From the IMG/VR virus record IMGVR_UViG_3300050581_000228: a stretch of 64,000 bases of DNA, one strand, 5' to 3'. Position numbers and translations under genes: made by a program. The notes beneath the pieces are model-generated. The model ran no database searches. It saw only the letters and a list, made by a program, of their open reading frames with translations, and was not told the origin of the DNA. This stretch comes from a virus. Lineage: Duplodnaviria; Heunggongvirae; Uroviricota; Caudoviricetes. Below are positions 4,210-58,691 of the stretch, in pieces (position 1 is the first letter of the stretch; each line of letters opens with the position of its first letter).

Positions 4210-4514
4210 GCTGGCTGTCCGTCCCTCCCGTTGACGCAAGGCGTATTGGCATTGCGCAGCGGCACCCCATGCTGCTCGAAACAGGCGACTCCGAGCGTCA
4301 CGACTTTTCGCAGACTCTCCAAGGTCTTCTCGTCGCCGTCCTCGCAGGTTGCCATGCGGAACGCCTGGTCAAGGTAGTGCCCCATGTAGACCAGGAATTC
4401 GCCGACAGTGCGCTTGTGCTCCTGGAAAGTGCCGTTCCATTGGCGTTGCCCCCAGCGGCGGGCTTGGTAGGCACGCTCGCTGGCAATCGCGTCGAAAATC
4501 ATGTCGATGGTCAT
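4206..4514 (-). CDS. hypothetical protein, possibly an all-alpha MazG-like NTP pyrophosphohydrolase
   Basis: 102 aa. ERAYQARRW...VGEFLVYMGHYL...EDGDEKTLESL loosely resembles the MazG EExxE/D pattern. ATGA coupling to the ligase gene stop. Confidence 0.35.
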   Translation of the reverse strand: MTIDMIFDAIASERAYQARRWGQRQWNGTFQEHKRTVGEFLVYMGHYLDQAFRMATCEDGDEKTLESLRKVVTLGVACFEQHGVPLRNANTPCVNGRDGQPA

Positions 4515-5584
4515 TCGTTGTCCTGTGCGCCTTTCCGATCGAGATAGTCCGCGCTCACGCTTTTCAAGATCAGCCGACCGCCGGTAGGAGCGTAGAATTG
4601 CTCAACCTGCGGGGTGATGACGCAGCCTTCTCGATCCTTAAAGCTGCTCTTGATCTTGTCTGAAGTAGCCAGCGTCGTGGGACCGTAGGTGAACTGCCTC
4701 ACGAGGTCTTTGCTGAACGGTCCCTCGTAGAGCACGGGGACCAGTTCGACGCCGAACTGGGCGCAGGCGGCTTTCAACGCCTCCCAGTCGAGATACCTGC
4801 CGTTGACGCTGATGTCGAAAACCCGGTAGCCGTCCTTGTCCTTGACTCCATAGTCGAGGTCTTGAACACACGCCCCGAAGATTTCCCCGAAAACGATCAC
4901 CGAGTTCTTCTCATCGCAGAGATGCGTGAGGAGATTCAAGACGCATTCGTCTTCGAGCGGCTTCCAGTAGATGCACGCCTTGCCTTCTTCCGGTTTCTTC
5001 CGCCTGGTCCGATGGCTCCCGGCCATGAACTCGAATTCGCCGTTCTTGAGGATCAGACCAACCCGGCTGTTCGTGCCGTGAATCTTCTCCGTGATCCGAA
5101 CGATTGTTCCTTCCGCGAAGGCATCGGGATAGCGCCAGATGTTCTCGATTTCTGTGTACTTGTGGAACTGGCTGTCCTCTGGCGCGAGATCGCCGGCAAA
5201 ATACTTGGCCGGCGGCTCGTACTTCTTGGCGGCCCACATCACCGACACGTCGCTCCCCAGGGGATGGGCGCGCAAGAGGTCGGGGGCAGGGATGATGAAA
5301 CCGAAGCTCGGTTCGCCTCGCAGCCGGCAGGCTGCCACCCGACACTGGCACTTGATGCCGTCGAGTTCGGCGTGTTTGAGATACTTCTGGATGCCGAGCG
5401 TTTGGCTGACATCCTGTGGGATCAGAATTCCGGGATGGAAAAAGACAACCCGCTGACCGTGTTGGAACTCGCCCTTGCCGACGATCGTTGTAAGACCCTT
5501 GATGACCGCGATTTCCAGTTTGCTCGCGTTCGGATGGGGCCTGATCTCGTCAATGGCGGTGAGTTCAACGAAAATGTTGGACAT
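4511..5584 (-). CDS. RNA ligase (Rnl2-like nucleotidyltransferase, KIHGTN motif I) with N-terminal tRNA-binding-like OB domain (DraRnl/NgrRnl Rnl5-like architecture)
   Basis: Motif I TEKIHGTN sits at about aa 168. The N-terminal 130 aa (HPNASKLEIAVIKG...GQRVVFF...ACRLRGEPSFGFI) matches the Myf/EMAPII-type tRNA-binding domain pattern. Confidence 0.7.
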   Translation of the reverse strand: MSNIFVELTAIDEIRPHPNASKLEIAVIKGLTTIVGKGEFQHGQRVVFFHPGILIPQDVSQTLGIQKYLKHAELDGIKCQCRVAACRLRGEPSFGFIIPAPDLLRAHPLGSDVSVMWAAKKYEPPAKYFAGDLAPEDSQFHKYTEIENIWRYPDAFAEGTIVRITEKIHGTNSRVGLILKNGEFEFMAGSHRTRRKKPEEGKACIYWKPLEDECVLNLLTHLCDEKNSVIVFGEIFGACVQDLDYGVKDKDGYRVFDISVNGRYLDWEALKAACAQFGVELVPVLYEGPFSKDLVRQFTYGPTTLATSDKIKSSFKDREGCVITPQVEQFYAPTGGRLILKSVSADYLDRKGAQDNE

Positions 5585-7107: not shown

Positions 7108-7820
7108 CGGTCTTCCATTGGTCGCTCGTGGTCAATCGTCTCCGCAAGCACTTGCTCGACTCGTTGGACGGCCTCAGCAAAATACTTGGCGTCCTTCTCG
7201 ATTCCCACGAAGCGCTTGCCGCTTCGGATCGCGGCTTCGGCCGTGGCACCCGATCCCATGAACCAGTCGCCGATCGTCTCGCCCGGCATCAAAGTCACCA
7301 GTCGTTGCAGGAGTTCGATCGGCTTCTCGGCCGGATGGATGCGATTGCTCGTCGGAACAACCTTGCACGATAGAACAGTCCCTTGGGTGTCCGTGAGCGT
7401 CGCGCCGGTGCCGGAGCACGCCAGGATCAATTCGTGCTGATGCCGCCACGGCCGCCCCATTCCGATCCGCTCCTTGTTCCAGACCAGGCAGACGGATCGC
7501 GGGAACAGGCTGTAGGTAGCTTCGTAGAACACCGGGTAGCTCTGGGCATCACAGAAGAACAGATGGTGTGAGTCCTTGCCGGCAACTTTCTGTGACAGGC
7601 CCACAATCTGCTCAAACCAGCCCCGCAGAATGCTCAGGTCCGCGTAGCAACGGGTCCAGCAATCCTCAGCCCGGCTGGCGTAATGCTGGGCCGGCAGGAA
7701 GAACGGCGGGTCGGTAATGACCGCATCGACCATGCCGGCTGGCAGCCGTCTCAAGACGTGCTCGGCATCACCGCAGAACAGCGAAATGTCGTTCTGCTGC
7801 CAATCAGGCTTCAGGGTCAT
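7092..7820 (-). CDS. DNA methyltransferase (beta-class N4-C/N6-A, ParB-associated type)
   Basis: DPPF near the N-terminus, then HPAEKP and GSGATAEAA (FxGxG-like), the order seen in DNA_methylase N-4/N-6 family. Probable start MTLKPDWQQ. Confidence 0.8.
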   Translation of the reverse strand: MTLKPDWQQNDISLFCGDAEHVLRRLPAGMVDAVITDPPFFLPAQHYASRAEDCWTRCYADLSILRGWFEQIVGLSQKVAGKDSHHLFFCDAQSYPVFYEATYSLFPRSVCLVWNKERIGMGRPWRHQHELILACSGTGATLTDTQGTVLSCKVVPTSNRIHPAEKPIELLQRLVTLMPGETIGDWFMGSGATAEAAIRSGKRFVGIEKDAKYFAEAVQRVEQVLAETIDHERPMEDRCRVL

Positions 7821-8908
7821 TCCACGTCCCTCCGTCGCCAATAGCGGGCTTCCTTCGGGATTCCGTCATCGGTGAGTTCCCGGTACTTGAACGTGACCGT
7901 CTGGCCTGTCTTGAAGCACTTCCCCTGGAAGAATGCTGGCATATCCTCGCCCGGATGCTCGGCCGCCGTGCGGCTCATGTCGGGATTGAGAAACTCGCGC
8001 TCGGCGTCCGTCAGGCCGGCAAGCTCCAGTCGCTTGCCCCTGTAGTCCACGATCAGTGCGCCAATCTTGCCCAGAAGTCGGCTGCCCTTGTTCGTCTCAC
8101 GACCAGACGTGAAACCAACGACCGTAGCCTCAGCGTCCTCGTAGGGTTTGAATTTGAGTAAGCCCTTGTGCCGTTTCGGCGTCCAGGGGGCCATCGGATC
8201 GCGGATCACACAGCCCTCCCCGCCTTGGTCGAGAACCTTTTGGAGGAAATCATTGACATTCGCTTGTGCCTCATCCTCACCCTCCGGCAACCGAAGCTGC
8301 TGATGAATGAAGACCCGATCATTCTGGGTCTCCAAGAACTCGCGCAGGAACATCAACTCATCGTTGAAGGTCGCCGGTGTGTTGACCCAGCCATAACCCG
8401 GCATCCTGTCGATCCGGGGCTTGAACCATTGTTCGATCTGCTCGAAGGCCAGGCTGCGGACCATGTTGGCGTTCTTGATCTCCCCCGACATGAACACGTA
8501 GGGAAGCGCAGGAGCGCTGTAGACCGCATAGCTGATGCGATGGAATCGCGGGTCCGGCTCATCGCCGCCGCAGATCGAGCGGCAAAGCTGGAAATTGCCA
8601 CGACCGGCCCACAATTCCCCATCGAGCGGACACGCCGGAAGGGCATTCAGAAAATCATCCGGGGCCATGATCGGATTACCATACCGGGACCACAGACCCG
8701 TGGCTTTCGGCTTGAGTTTCAACTTTCTCTTGCCGGTTTTCGGGTCTGTCACGCTGGCCCACGGTACTTGTTCGGTAGGGACGCCACGACTCGCGCCGCC
8801 GTCCCAGAAGCAGCGCGTTCCGTCGAGCTTCTCGCTGACCAAGTAGCCGGCGATCTTGTGCTTGTCCGGGTTGTAGGTATCGGCCAGTTGGAGAAACTCA
8901 CGACGCAT
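7817..8908 (-). CDS. ATP-dependent DNA ligase
   Basis: Probable start MRREFLQ. Motif I SEKLDGTR, motif III LDGELW, motif IV EGCVIRD, motif V LLKFK. Confidence 0.85.
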   Translation of the reverse strand: MRREFLQLADTYNPDKHKIAGYLVSEKLDGTRCFWDGGASRGVPTEQVPWASVTDPKTGKRKLKLKPKATGLWSRYGNPIMAPDDFLNALPACPLDGELWAGRGNFQLCRSICGGDEPDPRFHRISYAVYSAPALPYVFMSGEIKNANMVRSLAFEQIEQWFKPRIDRMPGYGWVNTPATFNDELMFLREFLETQNDRVFIHQQLRLPEGEDEAQANVNDFLQKVLDQGGEGCVIRDPMAPWTPKRHKGLLKFKPYEDAEATVVGFTSGRETNKGSRLLGKIGALIVDYRGKRLELAGLTDAEREFLNPDMSRTAAEHPGEDMPAFFQGKCFKTGQTVTFKYRELTDDGIPKEARYWRRRDVE

Positions 8909-9182
8909 TATGTCGCTCCAGGTGCTTGAATGCGGACTCGCTGTAATCGGCAAGGAAACTGCCGGCGCACCCGCAGGCAAACATGACGAACGGATTGAGG
9001 CTGACCAACGGACTGAGCAGGACGCCGCACCAGAAGCCCGCGCACTGGTAGCACTCAAACAAGCCGTGGTAGAGCTTCGGCGGCAGGTGTTGGCGCGCCC
9101 ATGTATCCACCGGCTCCATGATCTCGCTGTCGATCAGGATGTGAGTCATGCCGATGACGGCCAGAAAGAACAGCCAGATCAT
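8898..9182 (-). CDS. small cysteine-rich membrane protein, hypothetical
   Basis: 94 aa. Hydrophobic N-terminus MIWLFFLAVIG, then CYQCAGFWCGVLLSPLV. Confidence 0.4.
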   Translation of the reverse strand: MIWLFFLAVIGMTHILIDSEIMEPVDTWARQHLPPKLYHGLFECYQCAGFWCGVLLSPLVSLNPFVMFACGCAGSFLADYSESAFKHLERHNAS

Positions 9183-13243: not shown

Positions 13244-15820
13244 CTACATCATCTCCGGCGCGCGAATCTTGACCTTCTCCGCTCCGTCCTTCTTCTCCGC
13301 CCAATTGGCCATCTCCTCGAACCAGGACATGCCGATTAGCGGCACCTTGTCGCGGTAGGACTCCACGACTCTACGAACCGTTGCCGTCACCTGCTTCACG
13401 ACGCTTGGGTGCGTGCTGCACATGAGTTCGTCATGGACGTTCATCGGGCCGACGAGAAGCTCATGGATTCCCGCTGGCTGGATGTCCCAGATCGCCCGCT
13501 GCACGGCCTTCGTGATCTGGCCGCCGGGCGACTGAATCTCATGGTTGGCCGCCGCTCGCATGTTGGCGGCTTGAATCTGGAAGGCGGCTCCGTACAAGGC
13601 GCTGGCAACGGCACCGCCGGCGGTCTGAATCCTGTCATTGCGATGGACCTTGACTGGGTGGTTCCGCCAGCCTTTCGGCGGTTTCCGAGCAAGCTCAAAC
13701 AGCGCCCGGCAAATCTTGTTCTCCAGGGTGAAGTAGCGGCGGAAGCCCAGGAAGCTCTCGACGTACTCGGCCGGCTCGTCCCACACGACCTGCGAGCCGA
13801 TGCCGCCGGGTTGCTTCATCGAGCAGAACTTCCTTATGGTTCGCTCGCGGGCCTTGCCGATGCCCTTATACCGATTGGCCCATTCCTCGTGAGCTTTCTT
13901 CGCCTGCGCCTCGTTGATGCTCAGATTGCGTTGCAGCGTCTTTTCGTTGCCGCCGTAAATCTCGGCGAAGACGCCGCTCTTGCCCTTCTTGTACTTCTCC
14001 TTGTCCGCGACCACTTCCTCGTAGCTGCAATCGAAGAGAACCATGCCGAAGAGGGCGTGAATCTTCTTGGTTCCAATGCCGGTCCCATCGCACTCCTCGC
14101 ATTCATGTGTGCCAGCGCCGTGGCACTTCCTGCACTTCTTCGATGAGCACTTGCCAGTACCGTTGCAGTCGATGCAAGGTGCCTTGGTAACAAGGGTCTT
14201 GCGAATCTCAGGATCGTTGTAAACCGCATCGGCGATCGTGACCTCGAAGCTGTCGAAGTCGCCTCCGCAGAGGTTGTAGCCCGGCCAAGCCAGTGGGAAC
14301 ATGCAGCGGACTTCATCCGATCCCTTGATCCCTTGGGCGTTCAGGCCATCGCCGCCGCTCATGCGGTTGCTGAGCGTGCCCACGATGTTGAAGCTCGCGT
14401 GGAACTTGCCAGCGAAGATCAACTTGGTGAAAAGCTCGACCTCCTTGATCGCGTGCTTGACATTCAGCAAGTCTTTAGCTCGCACAGCGGCGGGGTGAGG
14501 CTCACCGGCCTTGAGATGGCCGCGCCCGCGACACCGCTGGCAGACGCCACCCTCATACCTTCCGGTTCTATCGCACTTCATGCAGAACTCGTGGACGTGG
14601 ATGCCGTCCCATCCTTCAACGCCATCGGTGCCGATGTCATCTTCCTCGTCGTCTTCGATGACCTGGTACTTCTCGACCTTTTCGAGGTTCTGCTTCTTGG
14701 TAGACTCTTGAATCTTGAGGCTTTCGGTGTCGTCCATGACTTCCATCAGGTAGGCACGGACGGCGGCCGGCTTATTGATGTTGACGGGAGAGGCCGCAAC
14801 CACGGCCTGGGCCTTGGCCAACAACTCCGTCATCCCTTCGACGTTGATGGTGAAACCGCGCCAACGAATAACGGGCACCATGCACGCCAAGATCGAATCG
14901 TCATCGCCCGGCGTCGGAAAGCCGAAATGTTCATCGAGCGCTCGCGTGTAAACGATGTCGTCGGTTGCGTAGTCGCGGGCATCTGTCCGCGCTGCCCAGT
15001 GCTCGATGAAGTGATGGATGACAGCCGGCCACGCTCGGCCCGCGAGCTTCTGCTTGCCATCTTTTTCAATCCACACTTCCCAGTTCTTCTCCGGGCTGCT
15101 CACGGCCAGGGCAGTCGGGGCGTAGCCGAGTTCGTAAGGTCGCCACGCGGGGTCCGGTTCAACGTCCTTGTAGTGATACTTGGGCGTCAAGCCCATCGCA
15201 TGTTCCGCAAGGAACTTCAGTCCGCCGGCCGGATTGAATCGCAGCACGACATCCTTGAAGTCGGGGTCCACCAAGCCCGTTTTCGTATCGCGGCGATCAA
15301 ACGCCTGCCACTTGGGCGCGTCCTTGTCGGCGCTCTTGGCGAAGTAGATGTCGTCAAGCTCGATCCGCTGCTCCAACTCCTGCGCCAGGGCATAGGCCAG
15401 TGCGGTGGGCACTTTCCGAATCCTGATGTCCTCGCGGGCCATCAGGCTTTGATACGGTCCCTTGCGGGAGTGTAACAGGAGATCGAGGGCGCTAGCCGGC
15501 TTCACGCACGGGCCATCCTTACCCTTCGGTTCCAGCAGCGCGATCTCCTCGATATGCTCGCAAGGAATCCAATCGGGTTTCGCCAAGCGGAATGTCGTGT
15601 AGCACTTGACGATGTGAAACCAGTCGAACGCCAGGTTGAACCCGACAACGGTATGCTGGCAAATCCATTCGATCAAGGAAAGAGTCTCGGAGATTGGCCG
15701 CCGCCAAACCTCGTGGAGGACAATGGGACCATCTTCCTCAGCGTACTGGAGGAGCACCATTTGGGAATGCAGCCCGCACGTCTCCGTATCGAGGTAGACT
15801 TTCGATGGAAAGTCACTCAT
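13244..15820 (-). CDS. family A DNA polymerase with 3'-5' exonuclease domain and DnaJ-type CxxCxGxG zinc-finger insertions
   Basis: Exo I VYLDTETCGL. Motif A GGDFDSFEVTIADAV. Motif B KEKYKKGKSGVFAEIYGG. Motif C VHDELM. Inserts CMKCDRTGRYEGGVCQRCRGRGH and CIDCNGTGKCSSKKCRKCHGAGTHECEECDGTG. Confidence 0.9.
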   Translation of the reverse strand: MSDFPSKVYLDTETCGLHSQMVLLQYAEEDGPIVLHEVWRRPISETLSLIEWICQHTVVGFNLAFDWFHIVKCYTTFRLAKPDWIPCEHIEEIALLEPKGKDGPCVKPASALDLLLHSRKGPYQSLMAREDIRIRKVPTALAYALAQELEQRIELDDIYFAKSADKDAPKWQAFDRRDTKTGLVDPDFKDVVLRFNPAGGLKFLAEHAMGLTPKYHYKDVEPDPAWRPYELGYAPTALAVSSPEKNWEVWIEKDGKQKLAGRAWPAVIHHFIEHWAARTDARDYATDDIVYTRALDEHFGFPTPGDDDSILACMVPVIRWRGFTINVEGMTELLAKAQAVVAASPVNINKPAAVRAYLMEVMDDTESLKIQESTKKQNLEKVEKYQVIEDDEEDDIGTDGVEGWDGIHVHEFCMKCDRTGRYEGGVCQRCRGRGHLKAGEPHPAAVRAKDLLNVKHAIKEVELFTKLIFAGKFHASFNIVGTLSNRMSGGDGLNAQGIKGSDEVRCMFPLAWPGYNLCGGDFDSFEVTIADAVYNDPEIRKTLVTKAPCIDCNGTGKCSSKKCRKCHGAGTHECEECDGTGIGTKKIHALFGMVLFDCSYEEVVADKEKYKKGKSGVFAEIYGGNEKTLQRNLSINEAQAKKAHEEWANRYKGIGKARERTIRKFCSMKQPGGIGSQVVWDEPAEYVESFLGFRRYFTLENKICRALFELARKPPKGWRNHPVKVHRNDRIQTAGGAVASALYGAAFQIQAANMRAAANHEIQSPGGQITKAVQRAIWDIQPAGIHELLVGPMNVHDELMCSTHPSVVKQVTATVRRVVESYRDKVPLIGMSWFEEMANWAEKKDGAEKVKIRAPEMM

Positions 15821-16139
15821 CGTCATCCTCATCGTGCGGTAGGAATGGACAGCACTCCCAGGCATCTGGATATTCACCTAGTTCCTGGAGCTTTGCCAAA
15901 GCACTCCGAACAGCGAATACGGCGTTGTCGCACTGCTCTTGTGCAACGTGCCATCCTTTACAACGACACACGTCCTCGAAGTCATCTTCACACTCGTAGG
16001 CCACCTCGATAGCGCAGGCATAATCCTGCCAGGCTTGAGCAATGTGACGAAAGCGGCCACATTCACAAGTGAGTCGCCTCACGCGAATCAGGAGACAAGT
16101 GGTGATAGCCAGGAATAGAACACTTATCAGTAGGATCAT
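15813..16139 (-). CDS. hypothetical membrane-anchored Cys-rich protein
   Basis: N-terminal TM segment MILLISVLFLAITTCLLI; acidic C-terminus; several Cys pairs. Confidence 0.35.
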   Translation of the reverse strand: MILLISVLFLAITTCLLIRVRRLTCECGRFRHIAQAWQDYACAIEVAYECEDDFEDVCRCKGWHVAQEQCDNAVFAVRSALAKLQELGEYPDAWECCPFLPHDEDDDE

Positions 16140-16690: not shown

Positions 16691-18352
16691 CTAGTTGCGA
16701 ATGAAGTCCGCCATGAGGGCGGGACAGGAGGCGTCGAAGCCTACCAGGTCAAGCATCCCAGCGTCGTTCGGATCAGCGATCGTAAACCCGGTGGCCGTCA
16801 TGCCGACAACGATCAGCTTGGCGTTGATGCCCGTGGCCTGACGGTACTGCATGAGGGCCTGACTGGGATGAATCTGCCCGGCCCAGGTCTCGTTGTCCGT
16901 GTAGACCACGAAGGCGTCCACTTCGAGCCGGTGTTCGAGGGCATAGATCATTGGCAGGGCACAGTCGGTCCCGCCCATCGGAATCTGCTCGATTGCCTGG
17001 ATCACGCCGTTGAGGCCCTGCCTCTTGGAGATGTCCACGGGCACCAGTTCGTGTGAGAAGCCGACCACATGCGTCTGCGGCTCGATCTTGTGAGTCACCA
17101 TCGACATGCAGGCGACGGCCTTGCGGCAGTCCAGATGCGTATTGGCCAGGTACTCCCAGCCCATCGACCCTGACACGTCCAGGGCCAACAGATGCCGCTT
17201 GCCGGTCGGCTCGACGGCATCGAAAGCCGAGTAGAAGGCATCCTCCAATGCAGCCGTGACTTGCTGTACCGGCTGCCATGTGAGGCTGCCTTTGATCCCG
17301 TGCCCTTGCCCGTAAGTGTCGGCTGCAATCAGAACGGACAATGGATGCACACGAGCACCTTTGAGCCGTTCGGTGTTGGTGAGCGTGTCGCACACCAGCT
17401 TCGTCGCTAGCGATAATGGCTTGAGCAGGCCCACGCTGGTCATCTTGCCGAGGTTGCGAATCATGGCCGTGGGCGGCAGATTCGGCAGCAAGGCGTCCCA
17501 GACCGCTGGGCTGCCAAGCAGCGTATTCGGCACGTGTTCCAAGGTCAGGCCGAAGGCTTGGATCAGCCGGACGGCCTCCTTCTCGTCACTGGGACCGAGC
17601 TTGTTGATCTCATTGAAGCCGGTGACGATCCGCAGATCACATGAACACGGCGGAAGCTCGCCCTTGGTAATCCAGTGATACAGGGCGTTGTGGTCGGAAT
17701 CAGTCGCCACCGGATGGCTCAGTCGCAGCACGTCGCGGTGCGTATAGCCAGCCCGGTTGCGGTACTTCGTGACTTGATAGGCCAGCTTGTCAGCAGGTTT
17801 CGTGTTGTACCAGACCGCAACCGCTTCACGTAGACCACGGCCCCAGCCGCGCAGTTCTTTGCAGTTGGCGACGAATTGGAACAAGTGCGTTGAAGTTCGG
17901 CACACGTGCGGGACAAAGCCAAGAGCCATGCGCCGAGCCGAATCGTTGTCCATCTGACTGGCCAAGAGTGCCAAAGCGAAGATCGCGGCGTCATTCTTGG
18001 GAGCACGTCCCGACTCGCTGATGGAAACAATCGTATCGACGGTCTGCGTTGGGTTGGCAGCCGCACACTCGATCACCACGGCGGCATTGTCAGCCGTCAA
18101 CTGGCGCTCGCCCACGTAGTAGGTGCCGCCCTCGCTGCCCAAGATCAAGAACCGCTCTAGTCTGCTCCAGCAATCCAGCGTATGGTTGTAGCCACCAGCA
18201 TTGTTCTGCGCCTGGCGTTTGCCAGGGATCGGCAGGCTCTGCGGGGTGACTCGGGACGACACGTGCTTGGCTAGGGTCTTCATCCAACGATCTCCAAGTG
18301 AAAGAATTGGGCGAGGAACTGCCGTGGGTGTCATCATTGCCAGATAACCCAC
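16691..18352 (-). CDS. rsr: Ro60/Rsr-like protein (TROVE-like helical N-terminal region plus C-terminal vWA domain with MIDAS)
   Basis: 553 aa, GTG start. C-terminal vWA HLLALDVSGSMG...GGTDCALPM (DxSxS...T MIDAS) preceded by about 350 aa of helical repeats. Size and architecture match Ro60 orthologs. Y-RNA-like motifs lie on both sides. Confidence 0.7.
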   Translation of the reverse strand: MGYLAMMTPTAVPRPILSLGDRWMKTLAKHVSSRVTPQSLPIPGKRQAQNNAGGYNHTLDCWSRLERFLILGSEGGTYYVGERQLTADNAAVVIECAAANPTQTVDTIVSISESGRAPKNDAAIFALALLASQMDNDSARRMALGFVPHVCRTSTHLFQFVANCKELRGWGRGLREAVAVWYNTKPADKLAYQVTKYRNRAGYTHRDVLRLSHPVATDSDHNALYHWITKGELPPCSCDLRIVTGFNEINKLGPSDEKEAVRLIQAFGLTLEHVPNTLLGSPAVWDALLPNLPPTAMIRNLGKMTSVGLLKPLSLATKLVCDTLTNTERLKGARVHPLSVLIAADTYGQGHGIKGSLTWQPVQQVTAALEDAFYSAFDAVEPTGKRHLLALDVSGSMGWEYLANTHLDCRKAVACMSMVTHKIEPQTHVVGFSHELVPVDISKRQGLNGVIQAIEQIPMGGTDCALPMIYALEHRLEVDAFVVYTDNETWAGQIHPSQALMQYRQATGINAKLIVVGMTATGFTIADPNDAGMLDLVGFDASCPALMADFIRN

Positions 18353-18442: not shown

Positions 18443-18572
18443 GCACGCCGGTAGGACTCGAACCTACGACCACAGGTTCCCTTTGTGATAACGCTCCCGA
18501 TTCGGCCCATCAGGCAAGAGACTCGAAAGCGATTTCTGATACCTGCGCTCTGACCAACTGAGCTACGGCGTA
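18443..18572 (-). ncRNA. tRNA-like gene 1 with about 56-63 nt intervening module inside the anticodon stem-loop (Y-RNA-like/intron-like)
   Basis: Acceptor TACGCCG/CGGCGTG. D-arm GCTC-AGTTGGTCA-GAGC. Anticodon stem CAGGT...ACCTG enclosing 63 nt. Variable loop TGGTC. T-arm GTAGG-TTCGAGT-CCTAC. The insert contains CGCUUUC...UCUCUUGCC...UGGGCCGAAUCGGGAGCGUUAUC. Confidence 0.5.
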
Positions 18573-20156: not shown

Positions 20157-21470
20157 TCATTTGAGTGGGCCGATGTCCCGGCCGCCGTCGATGATGTAGC
20201 GCTGCGGCCCATTCTTTTCATTCTCGTGCCGCAGCTTCACGTTCAGACGCCACGTCAATCCATGCTTTGGATTGACTCCGTGAAACCACTGGGCCGGCTC
20301 CCGGTAGCCCGACAGGCTGTTGTACGCAAAGGCGTCGGTTCCGAGCCAACTGCCGTTGACCAGGAGTTCGCCATCCACGTCAGACAGAGTGCTTGCCGCA
20401 TGGTGGTGGCCACAGCAGAAGTAGCGGCATCGCTTGGCACCGGCCGCCGCACCCAGGGCGATCAAGCCCTTCTGACGCCGGACCATGCCGTACCACGGGA
20501 TTCCAAGGCTGCTGCGGCAATCGTCGCCATGCGAAACGTTGAAGCCGACACCGTTGATGTTGACGTTCGCCGACCAGGCGTCCGGGATCGTGAAGTAGAC
20601 GTTCTCCAAGCCACGGCAATGCAGCCGGGCGATCTCCCCGACCAGGTAGTCCCAGTTATCATGGGCACCGAGGTAGTCTTTCTTTGGTGTCCGCCGGCCG
20701 TGGTTGCCCGCAAGATACAGGACGTTGACCTGCTCGAAGTGGGCCGCTAGGTCGCGGTACATCAGCGCGTGAAGCTGGCCGATCGCCAGGCAGTTCTTGA
20801 ACTGGTTGCGGTAGTAGCTTCGCTCGCAGGCCCGGTGGATTTCACCGCTCGTGAAGTCCCCGTAAGCCAGCACCCAGAGCACCGGGAAGTGGAACTTGGG
20901 ACTCAGGGTGTTCTGCGTCCATTCCACGACGGTATTGACGTAGCGCTCAGCGCGGGCGCACGAGATCGGAAAGTTGTATTCTTCCAATCCACCGACCTCT
21001 TCTGGCCGCACAACGGCGTCGTGATGACCGTCGCTCATGTGCATCACGCAATGCTCGACGATCTGTGCCTTTGGCCGCAAGACGATCTGTGACGGCAACG
21101 CCCTGAAAGGCTTGATCCGCTGCTCCATCTCGGCGGTGATCGCCCGGAACAGTCCTTGCGTCTTGGCGCTGGCCTTGCTCTTGGCCCGCTCTCGATTTCG
21201 CTCCTCGGTCAGATGGATGACCTCGGCCTCAAGCTCCAAGATGCGCTTGTTCGTCGGATCATGGTCCTCCAACTTCTTTCGCTGTCCGCCGGCTTTCTTC
21301 GGTGCGGGTTCGCCATTCGGCCACGGAACTTCCTTGTAGGCACGCCCTGTGGCAATATCGCTGACCAGGGATCGGCTTACCCTGTGCTTCTTGGCGATCG
21401 CCGCTTGAGTCATCCCATTACTGACGAGATCGGCCTTGATGCGCGCGGCCTTGTCCAGGTTCATCGTCAC
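20157..21470 (-). CDS. metallophosphoesterase with N-terminal HTH domain and coiled-coil linker
   Basis: HTH MTQAAIAKKHRVSRSLVSDIATGR. Metallophosphatase motifs VMHMSDGHHD, GNHG, GHHH. Confidence 0.7.
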   Translation of the reverse strand: MTMNLDKAARIKADLVSNGMTQAAIAKKHRVSRSLVSDIATGRAYKEVPWPNGEPAPKKAGGQRKKLEDHDPTNKRILELEAEVIHLTEERNRERAKSKASAKTQGLFRAITAEMEQRIKPFRALPSQIVLRPKAQIVEHCVMHMSDGHHDAVVRPEEVGGLEEYNFPISCARAERYVNTVVEWTQNTLSPKFHFPVLWVLAYGDFTSGEIHRACERSYYRNQFKNCLAIGQLHALMYRDLAAHFEQVNVLYLAGNHGRRTPKKDYLGAHDNWDYLVGEIARLHCRGLENVYFTIPDAWSANVNINGVGFNVSHGDDCRSSLGIPWYGMVRRQKGLIALGAAAGAKRCRYFCCGHHHAASTLSDVDGELLVNGSWLGTDAFAYNSLSGYREPAQWFHGVNPKHGLTWRLNVKLRHENEKNGPQRYIIDGGRDIGPLK

Positions 21471-21480
21471 TTGTCCTCCG

Positions 21481-23487
21481 CTAGGCCACGAGTTCTTCGA
21501 TCATTACTTCATCGTCGCTGCCCTCAACGTCGAGAGCATCGCTGAACTCACCCAAGGTCATCAGTTCCAGACGACGATTGGCCTGGATGACTTCAAGCAC
21601 TCGTTCATCGGTCGGCAGGTGAATCAGGTCCACGATTTCGCAGCCAAGGTTCTCGTCCATGCCTTTGCGGTGAATTCGGTCTTCACTCTGAGCACGATAC
21701 TCCGGCTTGAAGCTGTTGCTCCAATACACGGCCATCCTCGCCTCGACCAGCGTAAGGCTCATGCCGCCGGATTCCGGGTGCGAAACGAAAGCCACGCGCT
21801 CGTTCGCGCGATCGGCCCAGAAGTCCAAGGCGTCTTCACCCTTCCGAGTGACAACGTTGCCTTGATGGTCAGTGACCTCAAACCCACGGCCGTCGCATCG
21901 CAGCACCGACCAAGCCTCCTTGCGGCAAATGCCGGTGACCCGATCGACGCTGCCGGTAAACCCGGCGAACACGACGATCCGGCCATTCTCCTCACATTCT
22001 TCGAGGAGCTTCCTGAGAGCCTTCTCCTTCGGGCACGCAACCTCGCGGGCGATCCGCACCATCTTGGGCACGGTCTTCGAGCCGCCGCAGCGCGGGCATG
22101 GAACCCGCCTCTTTTGGAGCTTGGCGGCGAACTCTTCGCTCAGCATGTCGATCGTGCTGTAGGTGGCCTCCTCATCCTCGGGGTCAAACCACTCCTCAAC
22201 CTCGCCACAAGACTCTGGACAATGCGGACAGCGAACCTCGCCGTCCTGTACCTCCCGATACTGGAAGCCGTCGCTCAACTCGCGGAGCAGCGTCAGGCCC
22301 GTAATCGTATTTGGGGCACCGTCCATGATCGCCTGGGCCACCCTCAGCGCGCTGGGATGCGGCTTGCAGATGATCTTGCGGTATCGCTTCTCGGGCAGAG
22401 TCAAGCAATCCTTCTTGTGCTTGATGACCACGAGGCCCTTGAGCCGCTCGTACATATAGGCGACTTCATTGAAGCTCGGCTCGAACGGATGAAACTCATC
22501 GTGGTCAATGAACCCATCAAGCTGATGCGGCCCGTCGTTCTCGAAAAGACCGCAATGCTTGCACTTGTGTTCGTCGTCCTTCCAACCGATCCGCTTGGGG
22601 TACATTCCGGCGTCGAACTGCTTTATCACGACGAAAGCACAGCGGTGCTCAAGCGCCTTGCGACTGCCTTCCCGCAGGAAACCGGGCCATGCGATCTCGC
22701 ATTGGCTCCACCAGTCGAGAGGCGACTTCGGCGACGGCGTACCGCTCATCTCGATCACATAGCCGTCGAGACCATACTTCTCACGGATGAGGTCCGCCAA
22801 CTGCTGCGCGGCTTCGGTGCGCTGGCTGGTATCGCCTTTGAGCCGGCTCGATTCGTCGAAGATCACTCCTTGCGGAAGCTCGTTTTCGGGCCTCCAGTCC
22901 GTCATCCGGCGTTTGAGTTCCTCGTAGGTGATGAACTCGATGCGGATGGAGCCTGAAAAATCGAAGCCCCACTTGGCAAACTCGCGCTTGATGTTGGGGA
23001 TCGAACTCTTGGGACCGACCCACCACCAATGGAGAACGCCGCTCTTCTCAATCACCTTCTGCGCCGAGAGGGTCTTTCCCGTGCCCATTTCCGCCGCCCA
23101 GAGTTGATAGTGGTAAGTCAAGCCACTATCAGACAGATCGCACTGATGGGCCATCAGCGGCGTAGACTCCCCATTGAGCCGCGCATCGGAGTAGTCGTGC
23201 CGGACGAGATCGCGGTCAAACCAGGCATACACGTCCTCGCCCATCAAGAAGCCAAGCTGAAAGCGGTTGCGAGGGCAATCCTCGACCGACCAGATTTTTC
23301 GGCCGTCCTCATCGTCATCGCGGCCATGCCAGCGCGATCCGCGCATGGCCTTGATCTCTTCCTTTAGGCTGAACGGCGACTTGAGGAACCAGATTCGACC
23401 ATCTCTATACTCCAAGGTGGCCGCCGAACGGATAAGCCTGCCGCTTGAGGTCCGGGTCGTGAGTTTGCAGTTGATGGTTTCAGGCAT
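21481..23487 (-). CDS. SNF2/DEAD-like superfamily 2 helicase with zinc-ribbon insertions
   Basis: Walker A AAEMGTGKT. DExx box VIFDESSRLK. C-terminal helicase domain VVFAGFTGSVDR ... SGGMSLTL. Cys clusters CKHCG, CPHCPESCG, CPRCGG. Confidence 0.7.
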   Translation of the reverse strand: MPETINCKLTTRTSSGRLIRSAATLEYRDGRIWFLKSPFSLKEEIKAMRGSRWHGRDDDEDGRKIWSVEDCPRNRFQLGFLMGEDVYAWFDRDLVRHDYSDARLNGESTPLMAHQCDLSDSGLTYHYQLWAAEMGTGKTLSAQKVIEKSGVLHWWWVGPKSSIPNIKREFAKWGFDFSGSIRIEFITYEELKRRMTDWRPENELPQGVIFDESSRLKGDTSQRTEAAQQLADLIREKYGLDGYVIEMSGTPSPKSPLDWWSQCEIAWPGFLREGSRKALEHRCAFVVIKQFDAGMYPKRIGWKDDEHKCKHCGLFENDGPHQLDGFIDHDEFHPFEPSFNEVAYMYERLKGLVVIKHKKDCLTLPEKRYRKIICKPHPSALRVAQAIMDGAPNTITGLTLLRELSDGFQYREVQDGEVRCPHCPESCGEVEEWFDPEDEEATYSTIDMLSEEFAAKLQKRRVPCPRCGGSKTVPKMVRIAREVACPKEKALRKLLEECEENGRIVVFAGFTGSVDRVTGICRKEAWSVLRCDGRGFEVTDHQGNVVTRKGEDALDFWADRANERVAFVSHPESGGMSLTLVEARMAVYWSNSFKPEYRAQSEDRIHRKGMDENLGCEIVDLIHLPTDERVLEVIQANRRLELMTLGEFSDALDVEGSDDEVMIEELVA

Positions 23488-24010
23488 GGTATTCCAGCAG
23501 AAAGCCGCTGCGATCAGGAGCCGTCGTGCGCTCGAAGTTGCTCCAGACGGAAGTCAACCCCGCCCGATCAAACAGCAGAAGGATTTTCGAGTAACAGGTT
23601 CGTACAGTTGGCGGGCTGGCATCGTTCGTTCCGGCGGCCACGGCGTCTCGCCACTGCGCGAGAGTCCCGGTGAGGACGGCCAGGTTGACGCCTGGCGCGG
23701 TCGTTTCGCCCCGGACGAAGGACATGCCGGAAGTGCGTTCAAGGATGTCCAGCAGATCACGCTCATCGGCGATCACAAGCACGCTGAACGAAACGTGCGA
23801 AAGAAGGCTTGGGGTGATCTCCGCGTCCTGTTCCTTCAAGGACGCCAGACAGGACAGAAACTTCTCTGCGTCGGCCAACTTGCGGTGGCTGGCGTCGGCA
23901 GCGCCGGCGATGTTGTAGCCTAGAGCGTGGTGCGACAGACTCAGGAGCGTCGTAAAGTCGATCGCCGGTGTCGTAATGAGTACGGTTTCAACGGGCATTC
24001 CTATCCTCAC
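23480..24010 (-). CDS. hypothetical protein
   Basis: ORF in the operon; start MRIGMPVETV or MPVETV. Confidence 0.4.
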   Translation of the reverse strand: MRIGMPVETVLITTPAIDFTTLLSLSHHALGYNIAGAADASHRKLADAEKFLSCLASLKEQDAEITPSLLSHVSFSVLVIADERDLLDILERTSGMSFVRGETTAPGVNLAVLTGTLAQWRDAVAAGTNDASPPTVRTCYSKILLLFDRAGLTSVWSNFERTTAPDRSGFLLEYHA

Positions 24011-26356: not shown

Positions 26357-26508
26357 ATACAGTAGGGTAAAAAGACGAAAAATGTGACTGCGACATCGCC
26401 AGCCTCGAAAAAACGTGGAACGAAGGCCGGTTGTAACGCCGCGTCAATTACTGGCCTCTATTGCCATCTGCTTTCGCGGTCACATTTTTCAGGCATTTAC
26501 CCTACTGT
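26357..26508. promoter_or_regulatory. large palindromic element upstream of the primase gene (candidate operator or origin)
   Basis: Arm ATACAGTAGGGTAAAAAGACGAAAAATGTGAC at 26357-26388 faces the inverted arm GTCACATTTTTCAGGCATTTACCCTACTGTA at 26478-26508, with GCCGCGTCAAT between. These are A/T-rich patches in GC-rich DNA. A homologous single-arm module sits at 61486-61561. Confidence 0.4.
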
Positions 26509-26587
26509 AATAGCAGAACAGTTAATTCTCGCCGCTCTGGCAATCCGCGCCCCACTCTGGGGCGTCCTCTATCTAATAGGAGCCACG

Positions 26588-29296
26588 ATGCCCAAGCTCT
26601 CGGAAGCCATCTTCAACTTCATCAACGCTCGCAAGACGACCAACGCCGATCTGGTCGAGCGTTGGCACATTGGCATGGAGACGCAAGTCAACGTCGCAGC
26701 CGATAAGGGCGAACCAGTGGACGGGAAGCGTTCCACTTACACGGATAGTGAATACGAATGGTTTAACGTCAGGGTGCCCAAGAACGCCGCCAGCGAGCCG
26801 GAGTTCCGTGATTACGAACTCAGGTGGCCCCTGGACCTTCACGTCGAAGGCATCGGCATGACCGGCTGGGACTGGCAAGCCCGACAGTCCCGCTGGGTGG
26901 CGTTTGACTTCGACTCATTGACGGCCCATGCCAAGGGCATCGGGGTCAGTAACGAGGAACTCGAACGCATTAAGCGCGCTGCAATGGCTTGGCCTGGTGC
27001 CGAGATTCGCAAGAGCACCGGCGGGGCCGGCATCCATATTTATGTCTTCCTGGATGGCATCCCGACCGAGAACCACACGGTCCACGCCGCGCTGGCCCGC
27101 TGCATCCTTGGCATGATGTCCTCGGAGACCGGCTTCGACTTTGCCAGCCAGATCGACTGCTGCGGCGGCAATATGTGGTTCTGGCATCGAAAGATGACGG
27201 CCGCAAACGAGGGCCTCACGCTCCTCAAGAAGTCAGAGAAAATGCTGACTGAGGCTGACCTGCCGCCCAACTGGCGGGACCACATCGAGGTCATCACCCG
27301 GCGACGGTCCAAGATTCGCGTGCAAATGAATGATGAGTACCTTGATCCCTTCGAGGCCCTCACGTCTGCCCGCCGAATTGTGCCGCTGGACGAAACCCAC
27401 AAGCAGATCATGGACGAACTTGCCCATTCCGGGTTCACCACGATCTGGGTGCCTGACCACCACTTGTGCCAGACACACACTTGTGCTTTGGCAAAGCTGA
27501 TGGAGACGGGCAAGTACCAGGGCATCTACAAGACCAACTCCCAGGGTAAGAACCCCGGTAGCCCGAACTGCTTCATGTTCCCCTTGGATCATGGCGGCTG
27601 GCGGGTTTACCGCTTTTCGCCCGGCGTCAACGAGGCGGAGACCTGGAGCCAGGACCGGGAGGGGTGGACCAACTGCTACTTCAACTGCCGCCCTAACTTG
27701 GCCACCGCCGCCAAGGCGGTAGGTGGCCAAGAAGACCCGGATCATGGCGGGTTCGTGTTCAAGAACTCGGCCGAAGCGAAGAAGGCAGTCGAGGCGATCG
27801 GACAGAAGATCGACTTGCCCGAGAAGTATCTGAATCCGAAATCGAGTCGCCGGGTCAGGCTGAAAGCCCACAAGGACGGCCGGCTGGTAATGCAAATCAG
27901 CAAGAAAGCAGGCGAGAAGGATAAGGGGCTGGAAGGCTGGGTGAGCAAGAACGACAAATGGGTCAAGGTCTTCGACGTGATGGCGGACACGAAACGCGAT
28001 GACCTATCGCACGCCGAGTACGACAACGTAGTTCGCCAATTGGTTACGCCAACGGGTGAAGATGCCGGTTGGCACCTTTTTGCCGAGGACAAGACATGGC
28101 AACGCTTCGGAACGGAGAAAATCAAGTTGCATTTGCACTCGACGGGCCATCCGAAACCCGAAGTCGAATTGATCCTGGGAAGCATGATCGGCAGAGCCTG
28201 GAAGCTGGTCAACGTCCCCTTCCAGCCCGAATATCCAGGCAACCGTCAATGGAATCTCCGCGCGGCACAGTACGCCTACCAGCCTGTAAGCCTTGAGAAC
28301 GACCAGGTGCCACAGCACCTCCATTGGGATCGCGTGCTCAAACACTGTGGTCAGGACTTGGATGCAGCGGTGCGGGAAAGCGAGTGGTGTGGACTTCACA
28401 ACATCAAGTCGGGAGCCGACTACCTGCTGTACTGGATCGCCTTCGTGCTGCGTGATCCGTTCCAAGCTCTGCCCTACCTGTTCCTGTATGGAAACCAGAA
28501 CAGCGGCAAGTCGATCTTGCACCAAGCGTTCGGGTTGCTGATGACCTCGGGAGTGGCCTCGGCCGACCGCGCGCTCAACACCAGTACGGACTTCAACGGC
28601 GAGCTTGCCAATTGCGTGCTCGCGTACATCGAAGAAACCGACCTCTCGGCGCATGGGGGCAGGGCTTACAACCGCATCAAGGATTGGACCACGAATGACG
28701 ACTTCTGGGTGCGGCGGATGCACACCGACGCCTATAAGCAGCGCAATACCCTGCACTTCATCCAGACGGGCAACCGCCTCACCAACGTCTATTTGGAGTC
28801 AGGCGATACGCGGATCGTCGTGATCTATGTGCCGGACTTGCTGCCGGGCGAAGAGGTTGCAAAGAACACGCTGGTTGCCAAGCTGAAGGAAGAGGCTCCG
28901 CATTTCATGCGGACGGTCATGGACCTCACTCTTCCGTCGCCCTTCGGCCGTCTGGGGTTGCCGCCGCTACGGACCAACAACAAGGAGCGGGCAGAAGAAA
29001 TGAACAGCACCGCGATTGAGACTTTCATCAACGAGCAGTGCTTTCAGGTGCCGGGCGAGATGGTCGAGTTCAGCGTCTTTTACAAGCGGTTCCTCGACTG
29101 GTTGCCGGAAGGAACTCGCTACATCTGGAAGAAAGGGGTCGTCGTCGATGAGGTCAAACGGCATTTCCCATTCGGGGGCTACACCGGCAACAAACGAATG
29201 ATCGGCAACTTGTCCTTTGAGGAAAAGACGCCAGCACCGGACGCGAAGCCCTGGATCAGCGTGGACAACAAACTGGTACGGAAGGAAGACGCATGA
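26588..29296 (+). CDS. primase-polymerase / SF3 (D5/P4-alpha-like) helicase fusion
   Basis: Start at MPKLSE preceded by AGGAG. Prim-pol-like GGAGIHIYVFLDG region. C-terminal P-loop GNQNSGKS and downstream helicase motifs. Confidence 0.75.
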   Translation: MPKLSEAIFNFINARKTTNADLVERWHIGMETQVNVAADKGEPVDGKRSTYTDSEYEWFNVRVPKNAASEPEFRDYELRWPLDLHVEGIGMTGWDWQARQSRWVAFDFDSLTAHAKGIGVSNEELERIKRAAMAWPGAEIRKSTGGAGIHIYVFLDGIPTENHTVHAALARCILGMMSSETGFDFASQIDCCGGNMWFWHRKMTAANEGLTLLKKSEKMLTEADLPPNWRDHIEVITRRRSKIRVQMNDEYLDPFEALTSARRIVPLDETHKQIMDELAHSGFTTIWVPDHHLCQTHTCALAKLMETGKYQGIYKTNSQGKNPGSPNCFMFPLDHGGWRVYRFSPGVNEAETWSQDREGWTNCYFNCRPNLATAAKAVGGQEDPDHGGFVFKNSAEAKKAVEAIGQKIDLPEKYLNPKSSRRVRLKAHKDGRLVMQISKKAGEKDKGLEGWVSKNDKWVKVFDVMADTKRDDLSHAEYDNVVRQLVTPTGEDAGWHLFAEDKTWQRFGTEKIKLHLHSTGHPKPEVELILGSMIGRAWKLVNVPFQPEYPGNRQWNLRAAQYAYQPVSLENDQVPQHLHWDRVLKHCGQDLDAAVRESEWCGLHNIKSGADYLLYWIAFVLRDPFQALPYLFLYGNQNSGKSILHQAFGLLMTSGVASADRALNTSTDFNGELANCVLAYIEETDLSAHGGRAYNRIKDWTTNDDFWVRRMHTDAYKQRNTLHFIQTGNRLTNVYLESGDTRIVVIYVPDLLPGEEVAKNTLVAKLKEEAPHFMRTVMDLTLPSPFGRLGLPPLRTNNKERAEEMNSTAIETFINEQCFQVPGEMVEFSVFYKRFLDWLPEGTRYIWKKGVVVDEVKRHFPFGGYTGNKRMIGNLSFEEKTPAPDAKPWISVDNKLVRKEDA

Positions 29297-57960: not shown

Positions 57961-58287
57961 TCATTGGCGTGTCTGATTGAGTGAGCGTAGCGTGCTGAGA
58001 GCGAAACTGAGATTACTCGTCCGCACCACCACGTTGCCGTCATCCATGACGATGTAAGTAGGCAAAACACTCATTCCGTACCAAGATGCGAGATCACGCT
58101 GCGTGTCCACGTCGATTTCCGTGACCGGGAACTCTCTGGCGACTTCGACCAGCAGCGGCTTATCGCGTTGACAGGGCTGGCACCAGGTCGCGTGAACAGC
58201 GACGAGAGAGGGGCCAGGCAGAGGCGATGCCTGATCGCTGCACCCTGTCAGTACGAGAAGAACAATCAGTGTGGCAACGTACTGCAT
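57961..58287 (-). CDS. thioredoxin-like lipoprotein
   Basis: MQYVATLIVLLVLTGC lipobox and WCQPCQ CxxC motif. The long Arg-rich N-terminal extension in the ORF track is rejected. Confidence 0.6.
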   Translation of the reverse strand: MQYVATLIVLLVLTGCSDQASPLPGPSLVAVHATWCQPCQRDKPLLVEVAREFPVTEIDVDTQRDLASWYGMSVLPTYIVMDDGNVVVRTSNLSFALSTLRSLNQTRQ

Positions 58288-58691
58288 CAGACGGCCTGGG
58301 CGAGCTTCGCGGCGTTCTCGACGGCCTTGGTCACTTCGGCCAACTTCGCGGCGATATAGGCGCGGCCTTCCTCGCTCTTGAGCTTTGCTTCGAGCACGTT
58401 GCGGAACACGGTCTCGACTTCGGCCAGCACGGGTTCCTCGCCCCCGAGGAACAGTTCCGCGAGGGTCTGAATCTTCCGCGCCATCCCGGAGTAGTCGCCG
58501 ACCGAGTAGTCGATCAGGAACTCGGGGGTCTTCCGCAGGCCGACCGCCTGGAGCTTCGCGGCCAGCTTGGCGGCCGCGCGCCGGCGGTTCTCGATCTCGG
58601 TGTCCTTGGTGAACAGCCACTTCCCGATGAAGTAGGCCAGCAAGGGCACGCACACACAAAGGGCAATGGTAGCAGGGGTCAAAACGAACAT
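58287..58691 (-). CDS. membrane-anchored hypothetical protein
   Basis: N-terminal TM segment IALCVCVPLLAYFIG; helical remainder. Confidence 0.4.
   Translation of the reverse strand: MFVLTPATIALCVCVPLLAYFIGKWLFTKDTEIENRRRAAAKLAAKLQAVGLRKTPEFLIDYSVGDYSGMARKIQTLAELFLGGEEPVLAEVETVFRNVLEAKLKSEEGRAYIAAKLAEVTKAVENAAKLAQAV

Follow-up and report, generated by a model that had tools for sequence, protein, structure and literature searches.

A phage family A DNA polymerase with predicted DnaJ-type zinc knuckles in its thumb and fingers

The IMG/VR virus record IMGVR_UViG_3300050581_000228 (Caudoviricetes) was analyzed as one stretch of 64,000 nucleotides, hereafter the window. On its minus strand, at 13244..15820, it carries a family A DNA polymerase gene whose product contains two clusters of CxxC pairs, mostly in CxxCxGxG units, and alignment and modeling place one cluster in the thumb and the other in the fingers of the polymerase. 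The gene, which was assigned with Pfam, the closest database protein (P0001; 100% identity, 858 amino acids), AlphaFold2 (AF2), and Foldseek, encodes 858 amino acids from an ATG at 15820 to a stop codon at 13244-13246. A mechanical list of open reading frames (ORFs) gives a single minus-strand frame of 877 amino acids without interruption (13244..15877), which opens at an upstream GTG at 15877; the N-termini of the homologues match the ATG at 15820 and thus the 858-residue product. Residues are numbered here from this ATG (ORF numbering minus 19).

An earlier note, made from the letters of the DNA alone, had described the gene as a family A DNA polymerase with DnaJ-type CxxCxGxG repeats that lie between the exonuclease and polymerase motifs and are foreign to canonical Pol I. 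Its coordinates proved exact, and the two cysteine-rich peptides that it pointed out, CMKCDRTGRYEGGVCQRCRGRGH (coded at 14513-14590) and CIDCNGTGKCSSKKCRKCHGAGTHECEECDGTG (coded within 14066-14188), are both in the polymerase frame. The polymerase has five CxxC pairs in two clusters, of which four are strict CxxCxGxG units; the first pair is CxxCxRxG in the query and CxxCxGxG in close homologues. When the protein was shuffled 20,000 times, at least five CxxC pairs appeared in one shuffle and at least one CxxCxGxG unit in 66, indicating that the CxxC and CxxCxGxG content is far above chance expectation. The earlier note had named a separate ORF or a frameshift as the finding that would speak against it. 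We found a single frame, and the identical architecture is present in independent assemblies at 84-90% identity, one of which is a closed 4.2 Mb chromosome. Because the architecture recurs in this way, a frameshift, a chimera, or an assembly artifact is excluded as the source of the Cys clusters.

The assignment to family A was borne out by both sequence and fold. The protein matched PF00476 (DNA_pol_A) with 64.5 bits against a gathering cut-off of 34.3 (E 1.1e-17) and PHROG 17 (DNA polymerase) at 5.6e-32, and sequence and profile searches of the PDB led to Thermus phage G20c Pol I, Klenow, Bst, and Taq. An AlphaFold model, one of the checks that the earlier note had proposed, was built with AF2 from 85 homologues and is confidently Klenow-like (mean predicted local distance difference test [pLDDT] score of 86; predicted template modeling [pTM] score of 0.85). 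A Foldseek search with this model gave Klenow 1kfs as the top match (E 4.4e-13, target-normalized TM 0.62), followed by 7r0k and Bst, with G20c Pol I among the best structural matches.

The N-terminal 3'-5' exonuclease domain (14921..15820 on the minus strand, residues 1-300) contains the conserved motifs Exo I (YLDTETC, 15776-15796), Exo II (GFNLAFDWF, 15617-15643), and Exo III (YATDD, within 14945-14977), all on the same strand. Three residues of the domain, N62, D66, and D288, do not vary in the 85 aligned homologues, and D11, E13, and T14 are each conserved in at least 90% of them. The Foldseek superposition of the model on Klenow covers the exonuclease domain as well, although the Pfam exonuclease family PF01612 gave no match to the query despite the Exo I-III motifs. 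In the polymerase domain, motif A NLCGGDFDSFEV (14240..14275, minus strand) contains the predicted catalytic Asp, D521, and its residues G519, G520, D521, F522, F525, and E526 are invariant. Fingers helix N starts with KIHALFGMVLF (14033..14065, minus strand), in which the invariant H588 corresponds to Klenow H734, the profile alignment setting "KDIH" against Klenow "KKIH"; in Pol I, H734 contacts the phosphates of the incoming deoxynucleoside triphosphate. Motif B, or the O helix, KEKYKKGKSGVFAEIYGGN (13946..14002, minus strand), contains Y610, K614, F618, and Y622, all invariant, and motif C, PMNVHDEL (13424..13447, minus strand), contains the predicted catalytic residues D797 and E798, which are invariant together with H796. 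On these motifs, the enzyme looks like a family A DNA polymerase of the replicative type that is catalytically complete, with a proofreading exonuclease, and apparently active.

The O helix has one unusual position. The Arg of this helix (Klenow R754) contacts the γ-phosphate and is near-universal in family A polymerases; in the query's polymerase family, its position is occupied by an invariant Tyr, Y610. The register i, i+4, i+8, i+12 sets Y610-K614-F618-Y622 against R754-K758-F762-Y766, and Lys residues flank the Tyr (YKKGK).

The first cluster lies in the thumb subdomain (14411..14908, minus strand, residues 305-470), which was delimited by the secondary structure of the model and by flanking motifs. 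The thumb consists of helices 307-342, a PVNINKP motif, short tip helices, and a long helix at 443-470. Around the cluster, the order is PVNINKP, three short helices, the Cys-rich ribbon, a G-x-HPAA-x-RA motif, the 28-residue helix (443-470), and GKFHASF..GT.S.RMS. The two outer motifs, which flank the thumb tip, both align to Pol I-type polymerases, PVNINKP corresponding to the Pol I thumb motif "NLNSPKQL" and GKFHASF..GT.S.RMS to Klenow TGRVHTSY..TATGRLSS. These flanking motifs and the order of helices place cluster 1, in the model, at the tip of the thumb and inside the polymerase domain.

The inserted segment as a whole (insert 1; 14498..14668, minus strand, residues 385-441) consists of an acidic loop followed by a zinc ribbon, and it is missing in the distant homologues L017, L019, L020, L100, and L108. 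The thumb-tip ribbon proper, EFCMKCDRTGRYEGGVCQRCRGRGHL (14513..14590, minus strand, residues 411-436), has C413, C416, C427, and C430 as predicted ligands of one zinc. These four Cys residues, the preceding Glu, and the GxG are invariant over the 85 homologues, which extend down to ~63% identity, and the Arg in the CxRC of the second knuckle is near-invariant in the same set. The invariance of the four Cys ligands suggests that the ribbon holds one zinc ion. In profile searches, the ribbon matched anti-TRAP (3lcz, 8.8e-5; 2bx9, 2.2e-4), the cysteine-rich (CR) domain of Escherichia coli DnaJ (1exk, 4e-3), and DNAJA3; 17 of 37 thumb-ribbon sequences matched PF00684, the Pfam family of the DnaJ CR domain, at E<0.01, all below the gathering cut-off. 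In the query, the ribbon has a net charge of +5; across the family, that of insert 1 ranges from -2 to +5. Directly before this basic ribbon is an acidic stretch, IEDDEEDDIG (14630-14659, minus strand, residues 388-397), which is found only in the query's clade; pLDDT falls below 50 for residues 393-403 in this loop region.

The second cluster is located past motif A and the helices 525-534 and 537-543, directly before KIH588 and ahead of motif B. This insert (insert 2), TKAPCIDCNGTGKCSSKKCRKCHGAGTHECEECDGTGIGTK (14066..14188, minus strand, residues 545-585), contains three CxxCxGxG units together with C558 and H572. Alignment to Klenow, in line with the Pol I alignment proposed in the earlier note, sets the insertion point at the E729-G730-K731 loop in Klenow numbering, between fingers helices M and N. 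The placement of the repeats between the exonuclease and polymerase motifs therefore holds loosely for cluster 1, which is in the thumb and precedes motif A, and fails for cluster 2, which is in the fingers between motifs A and B.

In the AF2 model, the fingers module stands out from its loop on a stalk of two strands (546-548 and 582-584), and its pLDDT is 81-89 in the full model and 85 when the module is modeled in isolation. C549, C552, C558, C563, C566, H572, C574, and C577 are conserved in the query's clade. These seven Cys residues and one His are eight predicted ligands, and the module probably binds two zinc ions; the most plausible arrangement is an outer site formed by the first and last CxxC pairs (C549, C552, C574, and C577) and an inner Cys3His site (C558, C563, C566, and H572). 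With the predicted zinc of the thumb ribbon, three zinc ions per chain would be expected. Some homologues have four full CxxC pairs at the fingers site. The best profile match of the module was EMB2737 (5e-4), followed by BSD2, DnaJ 1exk, and anti-TRAP (7e-3 to 0.02). Among the insert-2 segments, 16 of 32 matched PF00684 at E<0.01, all sub-threshold, and eight matched the BSD2 CR domain. A Foldseek search with the isolated insert 2 model gave 23 matches, 18 of which were proteins of the DnaJ-CR class, with weak similarity. The net charge of insert 2 is 0 in the query, ranges from -4 to +4 in the family, and averages +2.6 for inserts of at least 46 amino acids, which are Lys-rich; the family mean net charges of the two inserts are +0.85 and +1.1. 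Literature searches, whose coverage was incomplete, found no description of a zinc module in the fingers of a polymerase, and the fingers module is apparently undescribed before.

Over the second cluster, PF00684 scored 21.4 bits on the query against a gathering score of 32.7. The best E-value for an insert segment alone was 5.6e-6 and the top bit score was 30.4 (full-length P0077, E 4.8e-7), both of which are sub-threshold. Moreover, the four-repeat, two-zinc layout of the canonical CR domain is absent, insert 1 having two repeats and insert 2 having three plus C558 and H572. The DnaJ-CR likeness claimed earlier is thus borne out in part, by the matches to anti-TRAP, BSD2, and DnaJ 1exk, whereas neither insert reaches the curated Pfam cut-off or has the layout of a bona fide CR domain in this protein. 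CxxCxGxG zinc knuckles are common to both inserts and to DnaJ CR, anti-TRAP, BSD2, and EMB2737; the one-zinc unit of anti-TRAP resembles insert 1 (E about 1e-4), and the two-zinc layout of CR and BSD2 resembles insert 2. The relatives in DnaJ and anti-TRAP sit in the DnaJ C-terminal domain or form a free small protein, whereas the query modules are embedded in a polymerase. In our reading, both inserts belong to the DnaJ-CR/anti-TRAP class of zinc knuckles, insert 1 probably being a one-zinc, anti-TRAP-like form and insert 2 a compact two-zinc form.

A related element has been reported in marine podophages. Family A polymerases of the HMO-2011 type (HMO-2011, CRP-1/2/3, and HTVC033P), from phages of SAR116, Roseobacter RCA, and Pelagibacter, have been called atypical: past the exonuclease domain and ahead of the polymerase domain, they have two CXXCXGXG motifs, for which the term "partial DnaJ central domain" was used (PMC6918029, PMC9038755). 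The GenBank record of HMO-2011 lists PF01612, PF00684, and PF00476. A comparison of the query family with a profile of six HMO-2011-type polymerases using hhalign gave a probability of 97.8% (E 1e-12, 393 columns). In this alignment, each of the two CxxC pairs of the HMO-2011-type enzymes faces its counterpart in the query's thumb ribbon, just behind a shared "ST..N.E" helix, whereas a gap opposite query residues 545-585 shows that they have no fingers module; they also have ~60 extra residues after the ribbon. The element that the HMO-2011 literature puts between domains is thus within the thumb in the present analysis.

The two groups are otherwise distant. The query and the HMO-2011-type enzymes share ~19% identity over a partial BLASTP alignment, and the query falls outside the HMO-2011-type DNA polymerases as delimited in PMC9038755, where members share >=25% identity across >=80% of their length. 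The HMO-2011-type genomes are podoviral with a DnaB-type helicase, whereas the window is siphovirus-like with a tape measure gene, and is associated with Planctomycetota, which sets it apart from the HMO-2011-type genome (a podovirus with shared capsid and TerL). By the profile alignment, the query and the HMO-2011-type enzymes thus have this ribbon in common, at one and the same site, in distinct polymerase lineages and distinct kinds of phage, be it through shared ancestry or through convergence.

Homologues were collected to follow both modules. A HMMER scan of 1.84 billion cluster representatives gave 463 clusters (50% identity) at E <=1e-30, and a scan of IMG/VR found 194 stretches that encode a relative, of which the best 80 were kept as loci (contigs up to ~178 kb). 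Relatives come from Thermoguttaceae, Pirellulales, and other Planctomycetota, where they lie in chromosomes and in bins, and from viral contigs of IMG/VR. In a tblastn search with the query polymerase against 50,697 GenBank phage records, there was no match, and no cultured phage in this set has a detectable homologue. By these searches, the query belongs to a large, uncultivated phage polymerase family.

Practically every one of 121 close homologues has the thumb ribbon (two CxxC pairs at the thumb site in 120 of 121). The fingers module is missing from 44 of these homologues, whereas 29 have two CxxC pairs in it, 22 have three, and 24 have four. The 104 polymerases from the loci have 0, 1, 2, or 3 ribbons at the thumb and none, one, or two predicted zinc sites at the fingers. 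Fitch parsimony over these 104 taxa, on a neighbor-joining tree made with the insert columns masked, required at least 11 changes in the presence of the fingers module and 3 in that of the thumb module. In a set of 138 full-length representatives at <=50% identity, both modules are missing from 62; the thumb module occurs in 47, the fingers module in 34, and the two together in 16. Several of the fingers inserts in this set are ordinary CxxC-x(n)-CxxC ribbons and not of the CxxCxGxG type. The statement that the inserts are not part of canonical Pol I was therefore correct, and they are absent from many members of the query's own polymerase family as well.

By this distribution, the thumb tip and the fingers M-N loop are insertion hot spots, at which modules have been gained, lost, and multiplied many times. 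Because many family members have no modules and the gains and losses are many, the modules are accessory, lie outside the catalytic core, and are dispensable for the fold. At the same time, the invariance of the thumb Cys, Glu, and GxG and the retention of C558 and H572 in the query's clade indicate purifying selection on the modules while they are present. Multiplied ribbons were observed at the thumb: L094 (9923-12673) has six CxxC pairs at this site, equivalent to three tandem ribbons, and a large clade (L006, L015, and ~18 related loci) carries an additional ribbon, CPKCKGKG...CPECNG.C, on the upstream side of the conserved ribbon.

The thumb site accommodates a further domain in some relatives. 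In four homologues (P0100, L032, L033, and L099), a J domain is nested between two thumb-ribbon CxxC pairs; these J domains have the HPD motif and match PF00226 with 32.6-44.9 bits against a cut-off of 27.8. Three of the loci are L032:10001-12751, L033:10001-12760, and L099:10001-12133. The J domain is found on two backbones, that of P0100, in which the thumb ribbon is doubled and the fingers module is missing, versus that of L032, L033, and L099, in which a single ribbon is combined with a predicted one-zinc module in the fingers. The only function known for J domains is to engage Hsp70/DnaK, and for this reason the thumb tip of these relatives almost certainly recruits the host Hsp70 (DnaK). 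In a literature search with incomplete coverage, no description of a J domain within a DNA polymerase was found.

Accessory insertions are a route to processivity and replisome coupling in phage family A polymerases, and the textbook case is the thioredoxin-binding domain (TBD) of T7 gene 5, a lineage-specific insertion at the thumb tip that docks a host protein and replisome partners. Insert 1 is likewise a thumb-tip insertion in a phage family A polymerase, located between the short tip helices and helix 443-470. The TBD differs in that it is a loop of 70-odd residues with no zinc and no kinship to insert 1 in sequence or fold, and the exact thumb-tip loop may differ. Pol theta, Pol nu, and the plant organellar DNA polymerases (POPs) may provide a further parallel: their thumb and fingers/palm inserts tune processivity, strand displacement, and lesion bypass and leave the catalytic core unchanged, but these inserts are non-zinc and unrelated in sequence to the query modules.

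Anti-TRAP, BSD2, and the DnaJ CR domain, to which the modules are closest among solved structures, bind proteins and not nucleic acids. Because of this, and because the thumb site also hosts J domains, we tentatively prefer, as a proposal whose chance we put a little short of even, that the modules are zinc-stapled accessory docking surfaces for replisome or host proteins and take no part in catalysis. The thumb ribbon would then play a role like that of the T7 TBD, keeping an accessory factor above the duplex as it leaves the enzyme and thereby tuning processivity and helicase coupling; in the J-domain relatives, the partner of the ribbon would be host Hsp70, DnaK. The fingers module could provide a second, lineage-specific contact beside the mobile fingers and the nucleotide entry side.

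Several observations weigh against docking. The Pfam scan found no match to the J domain (PF00226) in the query, which is thus not a type I DnaJ/Hsp40, and the DnaJ-CR similarity of the inserts, besides being below threshold, is in part a product of their Cys and Gly composition. The frequent loss of the modules means that they are dispensable for polymerization, and neutral decoration would look alike. A screen of neighboring genes (all-against-all BLASTP of 12,597 ORFs from the 104 loci and Fisher tests against fingers-module presence) gave no convincing partner that co-varies with the fingers module within 10 kb on either side; the best p was 5e-4 over ~950 clusters, and the associations were clade-confounded or due to shadow ORFs. 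Finally, the thumb ribbon of the query is basic, and direct DNA contact would be equally natural there.

This last point leads to a rather unlikely alternative, namely, that the ribbons are direct DNA clamps, which extend the thumb tip and possibly the fingers to wrap the primer-template or grip the template and so confer intrinsic processivity without an accessory protein, by analogy with the helix-hairpin-helix (HhH) or Sso7d fusions of engineered polymerases or with the T7 TBD closing over DNA. The tip of the thumb in Pol I-type enzymes contacts the duplex in the minor groove, and the ribbon lies in just this region; nucleic-acid binding is common among zinc ribbons, and the +5 charge, the near-invariant Arg in CxRC, and the Lys-rich longer fingers modules would all suit such a function, as would the two or three thumb ribbons of some lineages, which could lengthen a clamp. 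However, charge is only weakly and inconsistently positive over both inserts, and insert 2 of the query is neutral, which is mildly against a primarily electrostatic clamp. A disordered acidic loop directly precedes the ribbon in the query's clade. In addition, the closest solved relatives are protein binders, and a J domain nested at the thumb site would have no part in DNA binding. The very high turnover of the modules, their absence from many members, the heterogeneous sequences at the fingers site (including ribbons of other types), and the neighbor screen without a co-varying partner would also fit structural staples or near-neutral decorations, that is, zinc hairpins that are tolerated in two exposed loops, appear and disappear by drift or recombination, at most stabilize the fold, for example in thermophilic or anaerobic hosts, and lack a specific binding role. 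We consider this improbable: the Cys, Glu, and GxG of the thumb are invariant in the 85 homologues, C558 and H572 are kept in the query's clade, and at the thumb site even the very distant HMO-2011-type enzymes have a module and some relatives have gained a J domain.

A more specific proposal, which we regard as distinctly improbable, is that the thumb and fingers modules together represent the substrate-handling half of a DnaJ-like co-chaperone built into the polymerase, with host Hsp70 (DnaK) serving as an accessory factor much as thioredoxin does for T7; the link would be explicit in the relatives with a nested J domain, and in members without one, such as the query, it would work through the CR-like fingers, either directly or through host DnaJ. 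If true, this would be a previously unrecognized physical coupling between a chaperone and a DNA polymerase. Least probable of all, and in our estimate very unlikely, is a redox or zinc-release switch comparable to Hsp33, RsrA, or the DnaJ CR domain, in which oxidants would be sensed at the CxxC zinc sites and the release of zinc would reshape both thumb and fingers, thereby switching polymerase activity in a host that is anaerobic or microaerophilic. CxxC zinc centers of the DnaJ class are redox-active in other proteins, an oxidoreductase activity of DnaJ is mentioned in PMC8262869, and database records trace relatives to anaerobic digesters, sediments, and sulfidic caves. However, module-less family members come from similar sources, nothing in the window links the polymerase to redox control (its sole thioredoxin-fold gene is a predicted exported lipoprotein gene), and no direct evidence was found.

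The thumb element was already known from the HMO-2011-type phages. New here are the thumb ribbon in a distant, Planctomycetota-associated siphophage polymerase family, its placement in the thumb, the predicted two-zinc fingers module, the two hot spots, and the nested J domains. The motif of the abundant HMO-2011-type marine phages can accordingly be reread as a thumb insertion and not an inter-domain linker, and the fingers module and nested J domains lead to concrete hypotheses of a polymerase that recruits Hsp70 or other partners. If the modules raise processivity or strand displacement, they would be compact portable parts (26-41 amino acids) for polymerase engineering; if they are neutral decorations, they still reveal two loops of unusual plasticity in a fold that has been studied closely.

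The remainder of the window contains genes for a large terminase, a portal, a major head protein, a 1293-residue tape measure, and tail fibers. The replication module near the polymerase comprises a helicase (21481-23487), a DUF5906-type primase-helicase (26384-29296), an exonuclease (20157-21470), two ParB-like proteins, an ATP-dependent ligase, a methyltransferase, a sigma-like factor, and a deoxyribonucleotidase. Two tRNA genes and a gene of the Ro60/TROVE-vWA type are also present. Among the ORFs of the window, CxxCxGxG units are confined to the polymerase; the helicase ORF (PHROG 62; 21484-23553, minus strand) has its own cluster of three CxxC pairs, which is ordinary and not of this type. 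A 22.5 kb segment of a closed Thermoguttaceae chromosome is colinear with window positions 317-28255 at 72-79% nucleotide identity. Judged by its gene content and relatives, the window is a siphovirus-like tailed phage, or a prophage, with Thermoguttaceae-type Planctomycetota as hosts.

This closed chromosome (OY762224.2, 4.2 Mb) has three copies of the polymerase family (L001, L014, and L022), with 87%, 55%, and 55% identity to the query, respectively, suggesting that it carries several prophages related to one another. In L014 and L022, the more distant copies, the thumb ribbon is degenerate, with the form C-x4-C ... CPRC.

As a candidate for a T7-style thioredoxin factor, the thioredoxin-fold ORF at 57961-58920 (minus strand), which lies beside the terminase gene, was considered and rejected, its likely product being a short exported lipoprotein. 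The likely gene covers ~57961-58290, starts with MQYVATLIVLLVLTGC, which has a lipoprotein signal, and contains a WCQPC site; the product resembles an exported thiol-disulfide oxidoreductase and not a cytoplasmic polymerase cofactor.

The Ro60 orthologue within the replication module (16691-18352, minus strand) has TROVE and Ro60 vWA domains (E 2e-67). It is missing in L031 and in L001, which is otherwise colinear, and is present in L029 and L030, suggesting a variable accessory gene. Immediately upstream of it, a 130-nt segment (18443-18572, minus strand) matched an Rfam tRNA model with 47.4 bits and received no tRNA call from ARAGORN. Bacterial YrlA-type Y RNAs have a tRNA-like domain, and their genes adjoin Ro60; because the tRNA-like match adjoins the Ro60 gene in the same manner, the segment is a candidate phage Y RNA. 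The window also encodes two ligases, an RNA ligase (PF09414 and a PHA02142 OB fold) and an ATP-dependent DNA ligase, at 4511-5584 and 7817-9058, respectively, on the minus strand. The combination of an RNA ligase, a DNA ligase, Ro60, and tRNA genes suggests a set for RNA repair or quality control.

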